Virus record (IMG/VR): IMGVR_UViG_2667527975_000009
Span: 1-47,773 of that record
DNA length: 47,773 bases
From: a virus
Taxonomy: Duplodnaviria; Heunggongvirae; Uroviricota; Caudoviricetes
Direction: 5' to 3' (one strand)
Made by a program: the position numbers and the translations under genes
Shown: positions 36,774 through 46,890 of the stretch, one piece after another
Position numbering within the stretch: position 1 is the first letter of the stretch
How the letters are laid out: each line of letters begins with the position of its first letter
The notes under the pieces: generated by a model
The model's database searches: none
Told to the model about the DNA's origin: nothing
The model's input: the letters and a program-made list of their open reading frames with translations, nothing else

Positions 36774-37085
36774 ATGGAGATGATTATGGCCTGTTCAACA
36801 TTCAACCCTCTAACGTTACAGAAATACCAGCCAAACCCTGAAGATTTATGCTCACTGCGTGGCGGAAATCATGGTAAATCCGCCATGATCGAATGTAAGG
36901 ACAAAATCCACATTTGCCTTAATTGCGTTGATGTCCTCGTTGATATCAAAAATGAGAGAGAAGATAAAAAGCGTAGCGAGGCTGTTCGCGCCTTAGATTC
37001 ATGGATGCGGGATGGATATAGTGCCGCGCAAATTTATGACTTAGCAATATCAAAAGGTGAAATACCAGGAGTGCGTATCGAATAA
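36774..37085 (+). CDS. Hypothetical protein (last gene of the early-left operon)
   Basis: 103-aa ORF followed by a strong terminator. Confidence 0.5.
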   Translation: MEMIMACSTFNPLTLQKYQPNPEDLCSLRGGNHGKSAMIECKDKIHICLNCVDVLVDIKNEREDKKRSEAVRALDSWMRDGYSAAQIYDLAISKGEIPGVRIE

Positions 37086-37127
37086 GACGTAACCAATATT
37101 CGAATTGAAGAACTGAAAGAACACCAA

Positions 37128-37150
37128 GCCGCCTGATGGCGGTTTTTTAT
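37128..37150 (+). terminator. Intrinsic terminator at the end of the early-left operon
   Basis: GCCGCC-TGAT-GGCGGT followed by TTTTTTAT. Confidence 0.8.
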
Positions 37151-37158
37151 TGCCTGAT

Positions 37159-37174
37159 TTGCAGGTTCGATTCC
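37159..37174 (+). other. tRNA T-arm-like motif (candidate att core / junction of the two elements)
   Basis: TTGCAGGTTCGATTCC contains the canonical GGTTCGAnTCC T-loop motif, but the flanks do not fold into a tRNA; it lies between the prophage terminator and the alpA-int module. Confidence 0.5.
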
Positions 37175-37193
37175 CTATTCGGAGATAGCACTC

Positions 37194-37394
37194 ATGCAAC
37201 ACGAACTACAGCCTGATTCACTGGTTGATTTGAAATTCATCATGGCCGATACTGGCTTCGGTAAAACCTTCATCTATGACCGGATTAAGTCCGGCGACCT
37301 GCCAAAAGCCAAAGTTATCCACGGGCGAGCAAGATGGTTATATCGTGACCATTGTGAATTCAAAAATAAGCTCTTAAGCCGCGCCAATGGGTAA
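37194..37394 (+). CDS. AlpA/Vis-like excisionase or regulator (MerR-like HTH)
   Basis: 66 aa; the pattern ...IMADTGFGKTFIYDRIKSGDLPKAKVIHGRARWLYRDHCEF... fits AlpA-family proteins. Confidence 0.7.
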   Translation: MQHELQPDSLVDLKFIMADTGFGKTFIYDRIKSGDLPKAKVIHGRARWLYRDHCEFKNKLLSRANG

Positions 37395-37642
37395 AATAGC
37401 GGGTAAAACATTTCTCACATCTAAAAAATACCATTCCAATCAATCCCCTGCCGCTTCAAGTAGATGTCTGCAGGGGACACCATGAACACTTCTCACTAAG
37501 TTCAATTAATTCCATAACTCACTGTTTTAACTGATATCATCTCCTTATACTCGTCCAGCAAAGTACCATTATTTCTAATGGAATCTATACATCTTTGCGT
37601 ATAACATTGTGTATAACTGAGTTCGATCTTTTTTCTATACAC

Positions 37643-38818
37643 ATGCTGCTATCTGACATCCAAATAAAAAGAGCAAAACCGAAGGACAAACCCTATACGC
37701 TTAACGATGGTATGGGGCTATCACTCCTGATCGACACAGCGGGCAGTAAAGGCTGGCGTTTTCGCTATCGCTTTGCAGGTAAGCCTAAGATGATTTCCTT
37801 TGGCGTATATGGCGATGTGTCGTTGGCACAGGCACGTACCAAACGTGATGAAGCGCGTTCGATGTTAGCCAACGGGATAAACCCAAGTGAAGCCAGAAAA
37901 GCAGATAAGATTGCTTTGCAGTTCGCGCATGAGAACAGCTTTGAGTCTGTGGCCAGAGAATGGCACTCATCGAAAAAAGCCACCTGGTCAGAGGGTTATG
38001 CAAAAGAGGTTCTCAATTGTATGGAAAAGGATATTTTTCCTTTTATCGGCCAGCGCCCAATTGAGCAGATTGAACCATTAGAACTGCTAACCGTCCTGCA
38101 AAAAATAGAGAAAAGAGGTGCGCTAGAGCAAACCAGTAAGATCCGCCGCCGCTGTGGTGAAGTGCTTCGTTATGCTGTTGCCACTGGTAGAGCAAAGTAT
38201 AATTTTGCACCCGATTTAGCTATCGCACTCAACAAACCTAAAACCCAACACTTCCCGTTCCTGACTGAAAGCGAGTTGCCCGAGTTCGTTAATGCTCTGG
38301 ATAACTATCAGGGCAGTTTAGTTACCAAATACGCCACGCAGCTGTTGATGCTAACAGGCGTGCGAACAATTGAACTACGTGCAGCGGAATGGGCTGAGTT
38401 TGATTTAGATAATGCCTTATGGGAGATCCCCAAAGAACGGATGAAGAAACGCCGCCCCCATCTGGTTCCGTTATCAACTCAGGCGATCAATATCCTGAAA
38501 AAGCTGCAAGAAATAACAGGGAATTACAGCCTCGTTTTCCCTGGCCGGAATGACGTCAGTAAACCAATGAGCGAAGCCAGCATCAACAAAGTGATAAAAC
38601 TACTGGGTTATCACGGTCGGTTAACGGGTCACGGTTTCAGGCATACCATGAGCACCATCTTGCATGAGCATGGGTTTGAAAGTGCCTGGATTGAAATGCA
38701 GCTTGCGCATGTTGATAAGAACTCTATTCGAGGTACTTACAATCATGCGCAATATATTAAAGATCGACAAGTAATGATGGAATGGTACGCTAGCTTATTA
38801 AATACGACCTGCTATTAA
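37643..38818 (+). CDS. int: Tyrosine integrase, P4 type (second integrase)
   Basis: Start taken at the internal Met (MLLSDIQIKRAKPKDKPYTLNDGMGL...); homologous to but clearly distinct from the integrase at 1..1158. Confidence 0.9.
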   Translation: MLLSDIQIKRAKPKDKPYTLNDGMGLSLLIDTAGSKGWRFRYRFAGKPKMISFGVYGDVSLAQARTKRDEARSMLANGINPSEARKADKIALQFAHENSFESVAREWHSSKKATWSEGYAKEVLNCMEKDIFPFIGQRPIEQIEPLELLTVLQKIEKRGALEQTSKIRRRCGEVLRYAVATGRAKYNFAPDLAIALNKPKTQHFPFLTESELPEFVNALDNYQGSLVTKYATQLLMLTGVRTIELRAAEWAEFDLDNALWEIPKERMKKRRPHLVPLSTQAINILKKLQEITGNYSLVFPGRNDVSKPMSEASINKVIKLLGYHGRLTGHGFRHTMSTILHEHGFESAWIEMQLAHVDKNSIRGTYNHAQYIKDRQVMMEWYASLLNTTCY

Positions 38819-39748
38819 ATCCAGCATGAAACAAATATGGTGAGTAATTTGATACTGTTTGTTTTTTGGCAACCCAGGGAAATGCCTTACAGTTGGTTGA
38901 CTATTGTAATAATAATAGTTAAGACCAATGTTGCTGCCAAACTGGGTTGGATGTTGGGGAACAAGATTTGTAATTTGATCTGAAACATCTAAAAATTTTG
39001 CAGTAACATTTGAACTTCCTCGTTGCGTGTTGCTTGATACAAAATGACGAATCCAAACTGTATTCGCTTGTAAATTCTTGAACACCAAATGTGCGGCAAC
39101 AGCAGAAGGTTGACCACCTCCAAGATCTAGTACCTGGCCAGTAATTGTATAATCGCCAAATCCTAAGTAATTTTGTCCCACGAATTGATGTGCGTGCGTG
39201 AAAAGTTCCGGCCCATTATAATCAGCATTTTTTGCTAACTTTCTAAAGTTATCGCTAATAATAATTAACTTCGACAAAGGAAGAAGAGCGCACTGATTAG
39301 GAAGCATTTTATTATTTAAAACAACATGATAACTAATCAATTGATTTGTCGCCAACAACTGAATATCAGAGTTGGATAATGATGGATTATCATATAGAAG
39401 TGCAACTCGTCTATTTAAGTTAGCATTCAACCAATTATTAATATCATTAATCGTTGTATTGGGCTGAATAAGATATCCAGAGATGATATTATTTTTATTT
39501 GTTAATACACTTGATAAATTTTGATTTAAAGTTAAGACGTTATTGTGTGAAGAAAAATCTTCCTGATAAGGATTAAGGATAACAATTATGTCAGAATTCC
39601 AAACATTTAAACATGTTAATAAATTTCTCGTATTGACGTTAATTGGTTCTAAAATTGGTAGCAGACCATTTAGGCTAACTCCCTTCGCAACGAGGTCCCT
39701 AAGGCATAATAACTCTGTACTTCTCGCATACAAATATGGGCTATACAT
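38798..39748 (-). CDS. Cargo protein B (unknown function; AT-rich accessory gene)
   Basis: 316 aa, Asn/Leu/Ser-rich, low GC; second gene of a two-gene operon, and its 3' end overlaps the 3' end of int by 21 bp. Confidence 0.7.
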   Translation of the reverse strand: MYSPYLYARSTELLCLRDLVAKGVSLNGLLPILEPINVNTRNLLTCLNVWNSDIIVILNPYQEDFSSHNNVLTLNQNLSSVLTNKNNIISGYLIQPNTTINDINNWLNANLNRRVALLYDNPSLSNSDIQLLATNQLISYHVVLNNKMLPNQCALLPLSKLIIISDNFRKLAKNADYNGPELFTHAHQFVGQNYLGFGDYTITGQVLDLGGGQPSAVAAHLVFKNLQANTVWIRHFVSSNTQRGSSNVTAKFLDVSDQITNLVPQHPTQFGSNIGLNYYYYNSQPTVRHFPGLPKNKQYQITHHICFMLDLIAGRI

Positions 39749-39769
39749 AACTTACAACTCCTGAGGATA

Positions 39770-40651
39770 TCAACAAATTTTAATTTTTACATCCATCAAA
39801 TTCATGATGAATTCTTTTTGCTTTCTTGATAATGGTGTTGCATAACCTAAAACACGTAAACATGCTGGAAGAGAATAAATATAATCCAAAAAAACTTTAT
39901 CGTTACATCTTTTTTTCATAGCAGAGATAAAGTATTTATTTGCTATGTTTAATGGCATCTGCATGAATATCTCTTTACAATATTCATAAACCAATCCGTT
40001 AGGCATATTTATTTTAGTTGAAGTGTAATCTTCTATTATAGCTAAGAACTCTTCCTTTCTAAGAACTGAAAACAAGCTGTCACTTTTAATATAATCAATA
40101 TTTGAATCTGCCTCCTTAATGACACTCAATTGATCTTTTTTATTCAAAACCATAACTCCCACTCTGGGGAGATTTAAAGCACAATATTTACTTGCATACT
40201 CTGGATGTGTAACTATATACACTTTATCAAAAACATCCAAATAATCAGGGGCTTGAGTAATCAACCTTTTTGGTGAATCATACTCTGTCTTAATCTCGTA
40301 AGCTGTAGACGTACCATTAAACACCGCAACATCCACTATAGAGTTTTTAATTGGTAACTCTATGGACGACGAACTTGTTTTTGGGCTGTGCTTACCGAAT
40401 ATTATTTTATTGACAAGTGCTGTCTTATAAACATATTCATTTCTATAATTCAGACGCAAAAAATCATATAATGATGTAAATAAATCCCTTAGTGAAATCT
40501 CATGTTCATTATTATCATTGTTTGAAAACAGTGTTTCATAGCAGTAAGAATCAAAACTCCCAAATAAATCCGAAATATCCTTACCTTTTGCTAAGGATGA
40601 AAAAATGGGGCGACGGAAAAATTTAGCATATTCCTTTTTATTATGACTCAT
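39770..40651 (-). CDS. Cargo protein A (unknown function; possible PD-(D/E)xK nuclease-like motif)
   Basis: 293 aa, AT-rich; contains ...SIVDVAVFNGTSTAYEIKTEYD..., which resembles a D...E-x-K nuclease core. Confidence 0.7.
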   Translation of the reverse strand: MSHNKKEYAKFFRRPIFSSLAKGKDISDLFGSFDSYCYETLFSNNDNNEHEISLRDLFTSLYDFLRLNYRNEYVYKTALVNKIIFGKHSPKTSSSSIELPIKNSIVDVAVFNGTSTAYEIKTEYDSPKRLITQAPDYLDVFDKVYIVTHPEYASKYCALNLPRVGVMVLNKKDQLSVIKEADSNIDYIKSDSLFSVLRKEEFLAIIEDYTSTKINMPNGLVYEYCKEIFMQMPLNIANKYFISAMKKRCNDKVFLDYIYSLPACLRVLGYATPLSRKQKEFIMNLMDVKIKIC

Positions 40652-41332
40652 TACTCATACTCTATAAACATCATGCAATTTGATAAGTTATGACGAATTC
40701 TCACCATCCAGTTACTACCTGTATACATACTAATCAAAAAAAACGAGTACGCAAGATACGAAAGTACTTTTCTTGTTCACCAGTTAGCTTACCTTGATCC
40801 TCACCAGCGACTGGAAGATAGGTAGCAGTATATGTGGAAACCTTCCCCTAGCTAGGTCTACAAACGTAGTTTGGGCATTTAGGCTCCACGATTCACGGTT
40901 TGACACGGCCTGATATCTGCACATTCGTTTTGATATGCAGCAATCGTGAAAAAGGAAAATATACGCTCGACAGACCAAAACGGCACTACACCGCACCCGC
41001 CTGCGGTTTTCATATCACTAAAAATTTTCAGCCTGGATTTTTTACAAACGATACCGCCAGTCCGTGCCAGTCCTCGAGATGTACTGCGATACAGGAACTG
41101 AAAAGAATGAAAAGAAATTCATTTTTTTTCAGTTTTACTGTCCGTCGAATCTATGGCCTGAATACGCAACTCTATGATATTAAATGGATAATTAATTTTA
41201 GGTGTGTGATTTTATGAAGGTTTGTGAAACATGAAGAAGATAACCAGTTGAAAAATAATAATTTTATGACCGTATAAACTGAAATCCTGTGTTCAGGTTC
41301 CGGGAACAGATCGGCCATTCCCGACGCATACT

Positions 41333-41605
41333 TTACCCATTCTTTTGCGCAGCCAGCAGCAACTTTAAAGCCTTTTCCCGTTCCTCGGGTGGAATTGCAT
41401 CAATCAGCTCTTTAACCCTTCCCTGCCCGTTCAGCGCGCTTGGACTAACGGAATGGGAGAAAGCAACATTCATCACAAACGAGTGACCGCACTCCACATT
41501 AGAGCAATAGCAGTACACATCGTACAGTTGTGGGTGTTTCCTGTTTGTTTTACCTATCCGTGCTACTGCCTGACATGTGGGGCAGTACATTCTCATCATC
41601 TTCAT
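41333..41605 (-). CDS. Ogr/Delta-family zinc-finger transcriptional activator
   Basis: 90 aa with C-x2-C...C-x4-C (MYCPTCQAVARIG...CYCSNVECGHSF). Confidence 0.8.
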   Translation of the reverse strand: MKMMRMYCPTCQAVARIGKTNRKHPQLYDVYCYCSNVECGHSFVMNVAFSHSVSPSALNGQGRVKELIDAIPPEEREKALKLLLAAQKNG

Positions 41606-41679
41606 CGTTCTGTGCCCTATACTGTTGCCCGCCAGAAGAAGGGATTTGGATCCCTACCTCTTGTTCTGAACGTGTAACA

Positions 41680-41862
41680 CTGGTAACACGTGTAACGCTA
41701 TTGATTTAAAAGGATTTAATCTGTTACCAGTTAGCAAAATCAAGAGGTAACGCGTGGTAACACACCATTTTTTGTTACCTCTGTTACCAGTCAGTATTTT
41801 TGACTGGTAACACTGAAGAACCGCATCAGTAACGGGTGTTACCTCTGTTACCAGTGTTACCT
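41680..41862. repeat. Iteron array (TGTTACC / GGTAACA, at least 10 copies in both orientations); putative satellite ori
   Basis: Visible directly, for example CTGTTACCAG four times, GGTAACAC and GTGTTACCTC, immediately downstream of the primase gene. Confidence 0.65.
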
Positions 41863-41887
41863 CATAAAAATAAGACTCACGCGATAA

Positions 41888-44575
41888 TCACTCAGGTTCA
41901 GCGCTTCCCAGTACCTGTGTATTGAACTGGTACACACGTTTAAGCCCTATTTCTGGCAGGCGAATGCTGTTTTGCGTCCGGCCATCTTCACCGGGTTTCA
42001 GCCAGCCCGCGTCCACACACAACCTGGCCACCTTACGCGAGTCAAATCCCTTACAGATCTCCTTCCAGCCTGACGGGAGAACGTAGAACGTCACAACCGG
42101 CTCTGTCACGTTGTCTCCTTTATCGACTTTTCTGAATCCCATCATTGAAACAGGCCGGTTCCTGTCGTCATTCCAGTCAGCAAACCGACTGAACTGATTA
42201 CGCGTCATGAAGTCCCGAACCTGTTCAAGTGCCGCTTTATCTTCCTGATTAGCTGTATGGCCCCGGTCAGCCATCCATGCAGCCAGACAGCTTTGAGCGG
42301 CACGAAAGGCCTCTCCCTCCGGCCATCCTGTGATGCCCGCTTTTGTGGCCAGCTCCCCGGCCATCGCAACCAGAGCAAAACGGGTAACAGCCCGGCCAAC
42401 CTGATTCCCGGCATTTTCCGGCGTCAGCCTTCGGGTATACTCTTTCAATAAGGCTTTCGCCTGACTGGTCAGTTCCGGCAGATCAGCGGTCAGGCAATAC
42501 AGCCAGTCGCGGAATGGTGCACCATGATAATGCGCTACGTGCTGCTCAAGATGCTCAGCCAGGGTTTTCCCGCTACTGAAGCCATGAAGTTCTTCAAACA
42601 CGCCATACTTGCCCGAATCGCTTGGGATCTGGATCATTCTGACCTCAACCCCGGCATACGTACGTTCCCCGGCGCTTGCCGCATGCTCTACCAGTGACAG
42701 TTCCCCGGTAGACAGAAACAACAGATTCCAGCGGTTGGTTTCCCTTACCGAACCATCTGTTCTGGCTCTGGCTTTGCCCTGCCCGTTAGCCAGCATATAA
42801 GCGATATTTCCCGCCTCCCTGCCGTCAACCTCCCGGATTTCATCCAGCATCAGCGTGGCATCATTGCGGCGGCTCGCCGTTCCTTCTAAGGCATTCCCCG
42901 TCGCCCGCCACGTATGCCAGAAATCTGTTCCACCACATACTGATGCAGCCACTTTCATCGTCGTGGTTTTACCGTCTGTGGATTCCCCTTTGAGGTGATA
43001 ACCTCCACCGCCGATACCAACCAGTTTCAGAAGGGGGGCAGCAAATGCCAGACTCACCGCAAAGGCAAGACGGGCATTCTTTATGCAATAACGGCCTATA
43101 TTTTCACGCCAGCCCTCTGATGTGCCGCTGACACGAAAATCACGCCCCTGCACACTCGATGTTTGTAAGATGACTGACTGGGCTTCGCGCCCTATCACTT
43201 CATCCTGGAGAACGTAAACCCCGCCGTGCCAGCCAGTTTTATTCACACAGGTTACTTTTCTGTCCGGTTTACACAGCGAGATATATTCCATCAGGAATGC
43301 TCTGGCCATGCCGTTAATGTTGATGTAAGAAAGCCCGTTAACCAGCAGAACGCGGCGCAGTTCTTCCCCGCTACCGCCCAGCATCTCCATCGGCATTGCC
43401 CATTTACGGCTGTTTCCGTTGGTATCTTCCCATTCCAGCAAACGCCCGTAATTACTTCCATCAGCATCACTGGTGATTGCCGTCACCCGCAACGGACTGC
43501 AAATTTTGATATTACGTATCTCTGTATCACCATCAGACTTATTAACCAGCTTGTCGTACCACAAATATTCTTTTGTCAGCCGGAACCCTTCTGGTAAACG
43601 GGTCTGCCCTTTGCCATGCAGCGTCATTTCTTCACGAAAGGCATCTCTCGCCCGTTCTTTCCCCACTTCCTGCCGATAATCATCCCAGTCAGCCTTATGG
43701 CGTACCGGAGGGAGCGTTACCCAGCCATCCACCGCTTTGGCGGCTTTCTCTGCCTGAATACGCCCGGTGTTTTCTTTGCCGTCAGCCAGATCATTATCTC
43801 CGGCCAGAATGATCCGGGTTTCCGGCCAGCGTTTTCGGATCTGCTCCGTCACCTTCAGTAAATTGGTGGCAGCGACAGCCGCCACGATCCATCCTTCAGT
43901 CAGCAGACTGACGGTAAGCGCCGTGGCAAAACCCTCAGTGATAATCACCTGTTCAGGTGTTTCAGCGGGTATATCGGTCAGGGCAATGAATGCGCCAGAC
44001 AGCTGGCTACCGGGCAGCAGACTTTTATCCCCGTCAGGATTGATAAGCTGGCCACCAGTAATATTCCCGGAAATATCCGTCAAAGGCAGCAGTAATGAAC
44101 CGGTGGAAAATGTTATTCCGGCCAGATTCAAAGGCTGTGACAGCAAGGGAAGTGAATACCCGTGTAAGCTCTTATTTGTCAGATAGACCGGCTCACCATT
44201 GCAGGACTGCTGTCTGAGTCTGGTATATCGCTCCGCGCCCGCTTCTTTTCCTGCGGCCTTTTTCCTGGCTGGCAATGCGGGCTTCTCCTGTATTTCTGGT
44301 AATGCAAGCGCCTCAGATACCATCCCGGCGACTTCTTTTATCTTTCTTCCTGTCACCAGACGAACCAGATCAAGACCATCGCCATGACCGCACTGATTAC
44401 AAAACCACGTCCCTCGCCCCGCTTTATCGTCCAGTCGAAAACGATCTTTTCCACCACAGGCAGGGCAAGCCCCATGATGTCCTGCGGACGGTACTTTAAT
44501 ACCTAATGCTGACAGGATATAAGGCCAGCGCCCAATTGCAGCTCCGGAAATCGTGGATACAGACGGTGTTTTCAC
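41888..44575 (-). CDS. Primase-helicase (P4 alpha-like)
   Basis: 895 aa with an N-terminal Zn-ribbon (CPACGGKDRF...CNQCGHGDG), a TOPRIM-like region (IITEGFATAL...AGDNDLADG) and Walker A motif GESTDGKTT. Confidence 0.9.
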   Translation of the reverse strand: MKTPSVSTISGAAIGRWPYILSALGIKVPSAGHHGACPACGGKDRFRLDDKAGRGTWFCNQCGHGDGLDLVRLVTGRKIKEVAGMVSEALALPEIQEKPALPARKKAAGKEAGAERYTRLRQQSCNGEPVYLTNKSLHGYSLPLLSQPLNLAGITFSTGSLLLPLTDISGNITGGQLINPDGDKSLLPGSQLSGAFIALTDIPAETPEQVIITEGFATALTVSLLTEGWIVAAVAATNLLKVTEQIRKRWPETRIILAGDNDLADGKENTGRIQAEKAAKAVDGWVTLPPVRHKADWDDYRQEVGKERARDAFREEMTLHGKGQTRLPEGFRLTKEYLWYDKLVNKSDGDTEIRNIKICSPLRVTAITSDADGSNYGRLLEWEDTNGNSRKWAMPMEMLGGSGEELRRVLLVNGLSYININGMARAFLMEYISLCKPDRKVTCVNKTGWHGGVYVLQDEVIGREAQSVILQTSSVQGRDFRVSGTSEGWRENIGRYCIKNARLAFAVSLAFAAPLLKLVGIGGGGYHLKGESTDGKTTTMKVAASVCGGTDFWHTWRATGNALEGTASRRNDATLMLDEIREVDGREAGNIAYMLANGQGKARARTDGSVRETNRWNLLFLSTGELSLVEHAASAGERTYAGVEVRMIQIPSDSGKYGVFEELHGFSSGKTLAEHLEQHVAHYHGAPFRDWLYCLTADLPELTSQAKALLKEYTRRLTPENAGNQVGRAVTRFALVAMAGELATKAGITGWPEGEAFRAAQSCLAAWMADRGHTANQEDKAALEQVRDFMTRNQFSRFADWNDDRNRPVSMMGFRKVDKGDNVTEPVVTFYVLPSGWKEICKGFDSRKVARLCVDAGWLKPGEDGRTQNSIRLPEIGLKRVYQFNTQVLGSAEPE

Positions 44576-44982: not shown

Positions 44983-45211
44983 CGCGCATCACTCCCTTAA
45001 TTGTGCTGGTTTCCTTAACAACGCCATCCAGTTGTTCGGCAATACAGGCCACTAAAGCCGCAGCGCCTTCCGCTGAAACAGTTCTCGCTCCATTCACTGT
45101 GGGCACGGACAAGACCTCTGCAAGAAACTCACTGGCCAGTGCCGCCCGTAACAGACGACTCTCCCCCTGTTCACTCAATATGCAGCCTTGCTTAAAATTC
45201 ATGGATTTCAT
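44975..45211 (-). CDS. Hypothetical protein (primase operon)
   Basis: 78-aa ORF, coupled. Confidence 0.5.
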   Translation of the reverse strand: MKSMNFKQGCILSEQGESRLLRAALASEFLAEVLSVPTVNGARTVSAEGAAALVACIAEQLDGVVKETSTIKGVMRDE

Positions 45212-45411
45212 GCAACCACCTCCCCGGCTCTTTTCACAGGGATACGGGCAGCAAAGCTCAGGATAAATTCAGTGGCAAGTTTAAGGCGTGCAGCATGCTC
45301 GCATTCTGCGATTACACGCACAGGGCGTGGACGGGCATCACGGTCTGTACGGCGGACAGCCAGAAAGACAAAGGTAAATTCAGGGTGAGATAAAGCAGGG
45401 ACTGTAGCCAT
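45208..45411 (-). CDS. Hypothetical protein (first gene of the primase operon)
   Basis: About 67 aa from MATVPALSHPEF with GAAGGAGG 8 nt upstream; the longer 196-aa ORF upstream is low-complexity. Confidence 0.45.
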   Translation of the reverse strand: MATVPALSHPEFTFVFLAVRRTDRDARPRPVRVIAECEHAARLKLATEFILSFAARIPVKRAGEVVA

Positions 45412-45630
45412 AATGGCAACCTCCTTCAGATAGCGGGTAACGCTACCACCGGAGTTCCTACGCTCATGGGTGGTAGCCCAGACGGGGGTAGGAATACCGG
45501 CTCTGAAGGATACCGGCCAGCCCGAAAGCTGCCCCGCCTGGACTACCATAATTCTGATGATGTGGCGTAAAAAATAAAAAAATACAATCAGCCACCACAC
45601 CATAAATTTTAGGTGAGTCAAAGCTGCGAC

Positions 45631-45655
45631 ACAAAAAAACACGCCTAGCGCGTGT
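45631..45655 (-). terminator. Intrinsic terminator or attenuator in the leader upstream of the primase operon
   Basis: On the minus strand, ACACGC-GCTAG-GCGTGT followed by UUUUUU. Confidence 0.6.
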
Positions 45656-45848
45656 AGTATCGCCTTCAGATAACACGGGTTCCTACGCCCGGCTGCCGAT
45701 TTTGCGGCAACCTTTAAACTATATCCCGCGCATTCCTGGTGAGGCAAGAAATTTATAACCGAAAACTGATCATTGCCTGGATTAATTAACGCTGGCATGC
45801 TTAAGCCTCTGCTTAAAAATAGTTCTTCATTTTTCCTGATGCTGTAAA

Positions 45849-45885: not shown

Positions 45886-46890
45886 TCAATCCGCAAACGT
45901 CAGGGTGCACTCATCAACAGCCGCGTACAGTTCAGGTTCACCGAGTGCATAACCTTCATTGCGCAGGTAGGAATGCACGTATTCACTGCTTTCATCATCA
46001 AACTCAGCACGAAACCAGCGTGTTATCGCCTGAGTGTAAATATGCAGATTATCCAGCGTCGTTACTGCCAGACGCTTACCCGGCATAAACGGGGGAATAA
46101 ACGCAAAGCGGCCAGCAACAGAACTTGTAGCCATCTGTGCCGCATTCACATCAGACGGGCGGTCTGCGGCATTAAATAACTTCAGGCGTTGATGTGCTGC
46201 CAGCTCTGCCCCAACCAGTACAACCAGACGAGGATCTTCACGAAACTGCTCAGCAATAAGCTCTGTAATCAGATGGTTGGCCAGAGCATCAATATTTTTC
46301 CAGGTGCCAGTCTCTCCCAGAGTGACAGGCTCAGAGATGATTTGCTTTCCGTTCCCGTAGGCTTTCGCCAGTGCATGCCAGCCAATATTGACATCCTCGC
46401 CTTTTTTATTGATTTCCGGGTTTGTAGTATTTGCAATCGACACACCGTTGAAACCGACCCGCAGCATGTCCAGCGCATATGCCTGGGCAAAAAAGCTCTC
46501 AACCGTTTTCTCAAACTCATCCGGCACGCCGGTATGGTAAATATGAGACATATCGGAATAGCTGATCCGGGCGCAGGTATCCGTCTCTGTCAGAAAGAAC
46601 TCCGTACCATTGATTGCCATTTTTTTGTGGAAACGGCCACCATCCACACGTCCGGTATACAGTTCACTGGCACCAATATTGACGGCATTACCTGACACGG
46701 CGTTAACATCACGTAGGGTAATATTTTTAATAAGCCACCCGGATTCCAGAATTGAGGTACGCAGTATATTTTCAGTAGGTTCGCTTAATGCAAAGCGTCT
46801 GTTTGATTCTTCCTGATAGTTAGTGCCAGTGACGAATTTATTATGATAACGACGTGCTGCGTCCGGCCTTTCAGTTTTGAAGGCATACAT
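45886..46890 (-). CDS. Putative P2-family major-capsid-like protein (uncertain)
   Basis: 334 aa; the segments GFNGV..., EDPRLVVLVGAELAA and TLDNLHIYT resemble P2 GpN as I recall it. Not verified. Confidence 0.35.
   Translation of the reverse strand: MYAFKTERPDAARRYHNKFVTGTNYQEESNRRFALSEPTENILRTSILESGWLIKNITLRDVNAVSGNAVNIGASELYTGRVDGGRFHKKMAINGTEFFLTETDTCARISYSDMSHIYHTGVPDEFEKTVESFFAQAYALDMLRVGFNGVSIANTTNPEINKKGEDVNIGWHALAKAYGNGKQIISEPVTLGETGTWKNIDALANHLITELIAEQFREDPRLVVLVGAELAAHQRLKLFNAADRPSDVNAAQMATSSVAGRFAFIPPFMPGKRLAVTTLDNLHIYTQAITRWFRAEFDDESSEYVHSYLRNEGYALGEPELYAAVDECTLTFAD

Follow-up and report, generated by a model that had tools for sequence, protein, structure and literature searches.

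A two-gene nuclease and TIM-barrel cargo of a P4-related satellite, most likely a gop-less relative of gop-β-cII

The closest described relatives of the locus considered here are gop-β-cII and PD-λ-2, two validated anti-phage defence systems in which neither the mechanism nor the structure of the Beta component is known. The gop-β-cII locus of P4 protects against λ and P1; Gop is a small protein with two transmembrane segments, toxic without β, and gop and β were first described as a toxin-antitoxin-like pair (Rousset 2022, PMC9122126). In the same work, HHpred linked P4 cII to MmcB-like proteins. The cell-death phenotype of gop-β-cII is triggered by a phage accessory gene, orf184 (bioRxiv 10.1101/2023.04.06.535777). 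PD-λ-2 is derived from a toxin-antitoxin system, and its component C is a Beta-family protein that is needed for defence and not for toxin neutralisation (Vassallo et al. 2022, PMC9519451); the PADLOC models also link component C to the Beta family. With a P4 locus that joins PD-λ-2 components C and B to cll, both replicates showed lower plating of λ, P1, CLB_P2 and T7-like phages. Here we describe a locus of two genes, called A and B, in which a cII-family protein is paired with a remote Beta homologue. It lies in the IMG/VR virus record IMGVR_UViG_2667527975_000009 (Caudoviricetes), positions 1 to 47,773 (this whole stretch of 47,773 nucleotides is the window referred to below), and is best explained as a self-contained two-gene module, which an E. 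coli satellite related to P4 and inserted at tRNA-Arg (argW) carries as exchangeable cargo.

Genes A (293 aa) and B (316 aa) follow each other in this order on the same strand, with a spacing of 21 bp and a GGAG ahead of the ATG of B (coordinates are collected in Table 1). Both are present exactly as a first-pass annotation of the window had claimed, i.e. as co-directional AT-rich open reading frames (ORFs), and their position between int and the Ogr and primase genes is confirmed. A has a GC content of 0.306 and B of 0.340, and the complete swapped segment defined below has 0.336, as compared to 0.463 for int, 0.519 for the ogr-primase part and 0.48 for the remainder of the window, thus 31-34% versus 46-52% in the flanks. 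Chance does not readily give long ORFs in AT-rich DNA. Since their NCBIfam scores far exceed the curated cutoffs, A and B can be taken as real genes: A reaches 175.6 bits against sce7726_fam (NF033832; cutoff 70), and B 242.2 bits against sce7725_fam (NF033831; cutoff 60), with positions 1-311 of the 312 of the model covered.

Protein and profile comparisons place A in the P4 cII family. P4 cII itself scores 151.4 bits against sce7726_fam (E 2.5e-44) and RefSeq annotates it as a sce7726 family protein. The PADLOC 'cll' model of Rst_gop_beta_cll (PDLC02989) matches residues 71-252 of A (E 1.2e-18), Pfam PF26915 (Phage_P4_cII) is found in precomputed annotation on the 100%-identical cluster representative of A (P0074) and on all listed homologues, and BLASTP shows 39% identity between A and P4 cII over the catalytic core. 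The protein has a PD-(D/E)xK restriction-endonuclease-like fold, with the αβββαβ core and the D...(D/E)xK motif that define the superfamily. The PD-(D/E)xK-like motif quoted in the first-pass annotation is real, because its residues are invariant across the family, and the fold agrees: D107 (IVDVAVF), E119 and K121 (AYEIKTE) are the same in 45 family members, as are E72, E98 and Q133, and when P4 cII is added D107, E119, K121 and Q133 are still invariant. Core fold and catalytic motif are shared with MmcB-like and restriction-endonuclease-like PD-(D/E)xK proteins (PDB 3dnx, PaqCI, NucS), but at only 13-15% identity over ~130 residues; unlike these proteins, A has extra helical regions at both ends and an obligate TIM-barrel partner. 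Residues 1-70 make up a helical N-terminal extension, conserved in sce7726 proteins of the two-gene type (R14 and F17 are nearly invariant), which could be an interface with sce7725 or could substitute for a gop-dependent function. A HMMER scan with a copy of Pfam that lacks PF26915 gave nothing useful for A or B, profile searches of PDB sequences with A, B and the Beta families found no solved relatives, and the single meaningful match in a viral fold library was an uncharacterised Gordonia phage protein.

For B, the earlier view was that it has no recognisable domain, and that neither protein can be assigned to a named defence family. Neither statement survives: A falls into sce7726, PF26915 and PADLOC 'cll', and B is a member of the sce7725 family whose predicted model is a TIM barrel (predicted local distance difference test score 95; predicted template modelling score 0.93). 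The relation of B to P4 Beta was seen by comparing profiles. With hhalign, a profile of 44 sce7725 proteins and one of 41 Beta proteins were aligned over 252 columns (probability 91%, E 1e-6), and the alignment spans two motifs that do not vary in either family, the N-terminal Y-x-P-x-L-x-x-R-x-x-E motif and the G-D-[YH] motif. When the B profile was set against the single beta sequence, the match was weak and limited to the N-terminus (E 0.005), and BLASTP gave no significant match between B and P4 beta. At E up to 1, B was matched neither by Pfam Beta_protein (PF14350) nor by PADLOC 'beta' (PDLC02985), a model that matches P4 beta at 8e-188; a purpose-built Beta hidden Markov model (HMM) also fails, and the PADLOC PD-Lambda-2 models, PD-Lambda-2_C included, matched neither A nor B. 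Since homology was found at the profile-profile level only, we treat B as a remote homologue or superfamily relative of Beta and not as a member of Pfam Beta_protein. The barrel keeps many invariant polar residues (E12, E34, N59, D199, H220, H235, S238, K297 and H304), and for this reason B is predicted to be probably an enzyme. A sub-threshold Pfam match of B to NAD_synthase was taken as noise.

As A is in the cII family and B is a remote Beta homologue, the pair is related to a validated system, having two genes and no gop, and the locus most likely represents a co-directional sister architecture of gop-β-cII. Both systems pair a cII-family PD-(D/E)xK protein with a TIM-barrel protein of the Beta superfamily, and in both the genes are AT-rich accessory cargo, located beside the integrase in the slot that a P4-type satellite uses for defence. 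They differ, however, in several respects. P4 has gop, whereas no homologue is present here or in the 41 related loci presented below, and phmmer with P4 gop gave nothing below E ~1 among all window ORFs of at least 25 aa. In P4, gop-β is convergent with cII, whereas A and B form one operon. The P4 beta is recognised by beta HMMs, from which B is too diverged, and P4 cII is without the conserved ~65-aa N-terminal extension of A. Of the components of gop-β-cII (Rst_gop_beta_cll in DefenseFinder), A thus provides cll, while no gop was found and B goes unrecognised by the PADLOC 'beta' model. PD-λ-2 likewise uses a Beta-family protein for defence, which supports a sensor or licensing role of the barrel, but there the Beta protein works with a HigB-like protein and an Xre-peptidase in place of a cII-type nuclease, and B is missed by the models of its component C. 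Finally, the locus is a full-scoring member of both families of the NCBIfam sce7725/sce7726 gene pair (NF033831 and NF033832); these names give no function, to which the present analysis adds the folds, the hotspot setting and the relation to gop-β-cII.

The distribution of the pair was studied with a sce7726 profile scan of one genome per species, which returned 41 related loci from Gamma- and Betaproteobacteria, Acidobacteriota, Actinobacteria, Bacteroidota, Cloacimonadota and a Mycoplasma metagenome-assembled genome. In 37 of the 38 loci with downstream sequence available, sce7726 is followed by an adjacent sce7725 on the same strand. The P4 layout is also kept elsewhere: the Beta-family genes of Pseudomonas aeruginosa and Methylibium are preceded by a small ORF and are convergent with a Phage_P4_cII gene, so that the same two protein superfamilies have given rise to two conserved architectures. 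A conserved third gene was sought among the 129 nearest neighbours and none was found. These neighbours include P4-type integrases, HipA, TIR/ThsB, LmuB, GajA, KwaB, CapP and a methyl-directed restriction enzyme, plus housekeeping genes. Six distant loci (L013, L024, L028, L037, L041 and L045) have an extra co-directional ORF of 180-375 aa right after sce7725, which is not conserved across loci. Clustered at 50% identity, sce7725 proteins fall into 1,490 clusters (E up to 1e-3) or 1,183 clusters (E up to 1e-10). Almost all of the best 150 matches are ~300-325 aa long, and thus no fusions were seen among these. Only 14 plasmid records and 3 phage records have a member of the family, which makes it rare in both. 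One of the latter type, the 10.5-kb Listeria phage LM 4-14-1 (OR848224.1), has a full-length sce7725 homologue with 25% identity, and a 7.8-kb 'Bacteriophage sp.' record from human gut also carries one; both may be small Gram-positive satellites with the same module.

Within E. coli, the locus is present in 422 of 5,426 complete genomes, in all cases on the chromosome and with at least 99% identity, and RefSeq annotates both genes in all 422; at least one of the records is labelled ST131. The integrase is found at the same identity level in the same number of genomes, which indicates a single clonal element. Apparently inactivated copies of the pair exist. Gene A or B is split in three of the 38 cross-species loci (L019, L036 and L043). 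In two of the 422 E. coli genomes (NZ_AP022549.1 and NZ_CM135823.1) the match to the locus is in two pieces with an IS1 transposase annotated there, and in the first of these records sce7725 is listed twice; this suggests insertion of IS1 into sce7725.

Another line of evidence comes from the slot occupied by the pair. Sister satellites are 87-97% identical at the nucleotide level on either side of it, and what lies between the breakpoints differs from one to the next. The slot contains a reverse transcriptase and a SLATT protein in strain 377323_2f, an AAA ATPase with a DUF4435 protein, which we read as PARIS, in strains FDAARGOS_1261 and PEC1011, and the Kiwa genes KwaA and KwaB in strain CT01. 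An element of the same type in Morganella psychrotolerans has, at the same location, a 65%-identical copy of the pair. BLASTN comparisons with L003-L006 set the breakpoints at 38759-38787 on the left and 40972-40976 on the right. The left one falls in the final codons of int, and therefore the C-terminus of the integrase is swapped together with the cargo. At their 3' ends, B and int share 21 bp, and an overlap of ~20 bp between the last cargo gene and the integrase stop is seen in every cargo variant (window 38759-38818). A terminator-like hairpin downstream of ogr lies at the right breakpoint, which leaves ~320 bp of cassette-specific sequence upstream of A. This region presumably holds the cassette's own promoter and 5' untranslated region; a consensus scan gave a weak sigma-70-like match at 40668-40640, and an Rfam scan of positions 37000-42000 gave nothing credible and no family in this region. 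The suggestion that the genes are horizontally acquired cargo in a variable slot is therefore borne out: comparison of the int-to-ogr interval across related elements, as had been proposed, reveals a hotspot in which the same backbone has, between identical breakpoints, Kiwa, the ATPase-DUF4435 pair or the reverse transcriptase and SLATT genes.

Taken together, these data lead us to the reading, held with somewhat better than even confidence, that A and B form an anti-phage module of the cII/Beta lineage. We infer the defence function from the homology to validated systems, the hotspot, the defence-island neighbours and the patchy, mobile distribution, and a division of labour between A and B is suggested by the fact that the Beta protein of PD-λ-2 is needed only for defence and by the intact nuclease motif of A. 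Occasional inactivation by IS1 or gene splitting would fit as well, being common for defence genes. The candidate mechanism would be as follows. A and B would be co-expressed from the cassette promoter and act jointly, probably as a complex, with B as the sensing or licensing component and probably an enzyme. On infection, B would release or activate the nuclease A, the trigger being perhaps a phage accessory protein. A would then cut phage and/or host DNA, its presumed target, and phage replication would be blocked, possibly by abortive infection. This particular order of events is offered tentatively, and we regard it as possible but doubtful. As to the first-pass proposal of a novel anti-phage system, defence stands as the best reading, but the claim of novelty has to be reduced. 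The locus is a distinct architecture (gop is absent, the genes are co-directional and the barrel has diverged beyond HMM recognition) and not a categorically new system, since A is of the family that provides a named component of a validated system (PMC9122126), and the pair already has a name at NCBI. Matches to characterised proteins, which had been named as grounds for giving up the proposal, were found in part, and the family in question is one with a defence phenotype, that of gop-β-cII.

Several points weigh against this reading. Gop, the known toxic component of P4, is absent here. The published phenotype is that of the three-gene P4 locus only, and the contribution of cII to P4 defence is not established in the cited papers. 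We found no published experiment on the two-gene architecture. The link between B and Beta comes from one profile-profile comparison, at 91% probability, and HMMER searches with PADLOC 'beta', PD-Lambda-2_C and Pfam Beta_protein all miss B. Moreover, because the E. coli element is clonal (all 422 genomes being at least 99% identical), its frequency in this species says nothing about selection. A literature search with the sce7725 and sce7726 names, the RefSeq accessions and the NCBIfam identifiers brought incidental annotation only and no functional work. None of the new systems named by Moura de Sousa et al. 2026 matches the pair, and six exact 21-24-mers (three from the window genes and their reverse complements) are absent from the constructs synthesised in that study; the two RefSeq accessions are not listed in the accessible part of the supplements of Rousset 2022.

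Other explanations of the pair must be considered. It could work like a restriction-modification system, where the barrel, as a nucleic-acid-modifying or base-exchanging enzyme, would put a mark on host DNA (or recognise phage DNA that is modified), and DNA without the mark (or with it) would be cut by the nuclease, an arrangement that we judge improbable. We give the same low credence to an addiction or stabilisation module of the toxin-antitoxin type, which would keep the satellite in the chromosome and confer phage resistance only incidentally. The toxin-antitoxin history of gop and β (PMC9122126) and of PD-λ-2 (PMC9519451) would agree with it, as would the location of the pair, always on mobile elements or islands, but the pair is also found at chromosomal sites flanked by housekeeping genes with no obvious element, and the sister elements fill the same slot with bona fide defence systems. 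Moreover, the split genes in three of 38 loci and the IS1 in B in two E. coli genomes indicate that loss of either gene is apparently tolerated.

Still less probable is a role in the life cycle of the satellite, be it in the lysogeny decision, in helper exploitation or in the processing of helper DNA. The genetic definition of P4 cII rests on a clear-plaque mutation, its historical name points to the lysogeny decision, and the genes adjoin int and ogr/delta. Against this, most loci have no satellite or phage genes nearby, the pair also occurs in phyla without P2/P4-type elements, and the replacement of the pair by unrelated defence systems in sister satellites implies that it is not essential to the element. 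As for an ordinary metabolic or housekeeping pair (for instance an accessory protein together with a lyase or aldolase) that would be located in an island by chance, we consider it extremely improbable: identity is just 7-10% and no Pfam enzyme family was matched, the obligate partner has a restriction-endonuclease fold, and the distribution is patchy and island-borne.

The locus suggests that a cII nuclease and a Beta-like barrel are a conserved pair on their own, and thus it offers a minimal two-gene model of what the barrel senses or catalyses, in a family of ~1,200 sce7725 clusters from at least six phyla. A far-reaching extension, which we regard as speculative and rather unlikely, is that the cII nuclease and the Beta-superfamily TIM barrel are the ancient minimal core of a large cross-phylum immune superfamily, with the barrel as an enzymatic infection sensor of a new type, and to which gop or HigB and the Xre-peptidase would have been added as effectors. 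Were it true, the nuclease would be licensed by the barrel through the making, destruction or transfer of a small molecule or of a nucleic-acid moiety, a mechanism without described counterpart among known defence systems. On a more practical level, annotation with the current PADLOC v2 models would flag merely an orphan 'cll' at this locus, so the module is probably under-counted, including in the 422 E. coli genomes; this is a likely blind spot of current defence annotation.

Table 1. Features of the cargo slot and of the satellite around it (window coordinates)
Feature	Position	Strand	Basis
tRNA-Arg (argW) 3'-end remnant ctgcaggggacacca, left attachment site of the satellite	37468..37482	+	
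P4-type tyrosine integrase; last ~20 codons inside the swapped segment	37640..38818	+	Pfam Arm-DNA-bind_3 + Phage_int_M + Phage_integrase; RefSeq
Swapped cargo cassette, ~2.2 kb, GC 0.336	38788..40972	n/a	BLASTN breakpoints
Gene B: sce7725 family, TIM-barrel fold, putative sensor/regulator enzyme	38798..39748	-	
Gene A: sce7726 / Phage_P4_cII family, PD-(D/E)xK nuclease fold, putative effector	39770..40651	-	
Cassette-specific region upstream of A	40652..40972	-	within variable segment
Terminator-like hairpin, conserved/variable boundary, downstream of ogr/delta	40980..40997	-	consensus scan only
Ogr/Delta-like zinc-finger gene at the slot border	41333..41605	-	Pfam Ogr_Delta E 5e-14
P4 alpha-like primase-helicase (Zn ribbon + Toprim + DUF927)	41888..44575	-	Pfam

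The carrier has the features of a P4-like satellite: a P4-type integrase, an alpha-type primase and a Delta/Ogr regulator (all by Pfam) and integration at tRNA-Arg. Its left attachment site matches the final 15 nt of the tRNA-Arg annotated in SK1144, where the element sits at this tRNA between yfdC and dsdC. The gene order there is int, sce7725, sce7726, the ogr/delta-like gene, the DUF927 primase, two hypothetical genes, an Icd-like/Ash gene, a homologue of the P2-family major capsid protein, a hypothetical gene and a helix-turn-helix gene. In SK1144 the satellite directly abuts the tRNA, without the P22-like prophage that occupies positions 1-37467 of the window. This prophage is ~96% identical, from portal to tail needle, to phage IME10 and BASEL phages, and in the window both elements are integrated at this tRNA-Arg (argW), one behind the other. 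An ORF at 45208-45798 (-) is listed with 196 aa. The genes psu and sid were not found in the complete SK1144 element; the P2-family major capsid homologue is there instead, and its counterpart in the window lies at 45886-46890 (-) (Pfam Phage_cap_P2, E 9.5e-67). A capsid gene of its own is unusual for a P4-type satellite, as normally the capsid protein of the helper gets redirected, and this satellite may build or remodel capsids using its own copy of the protein.

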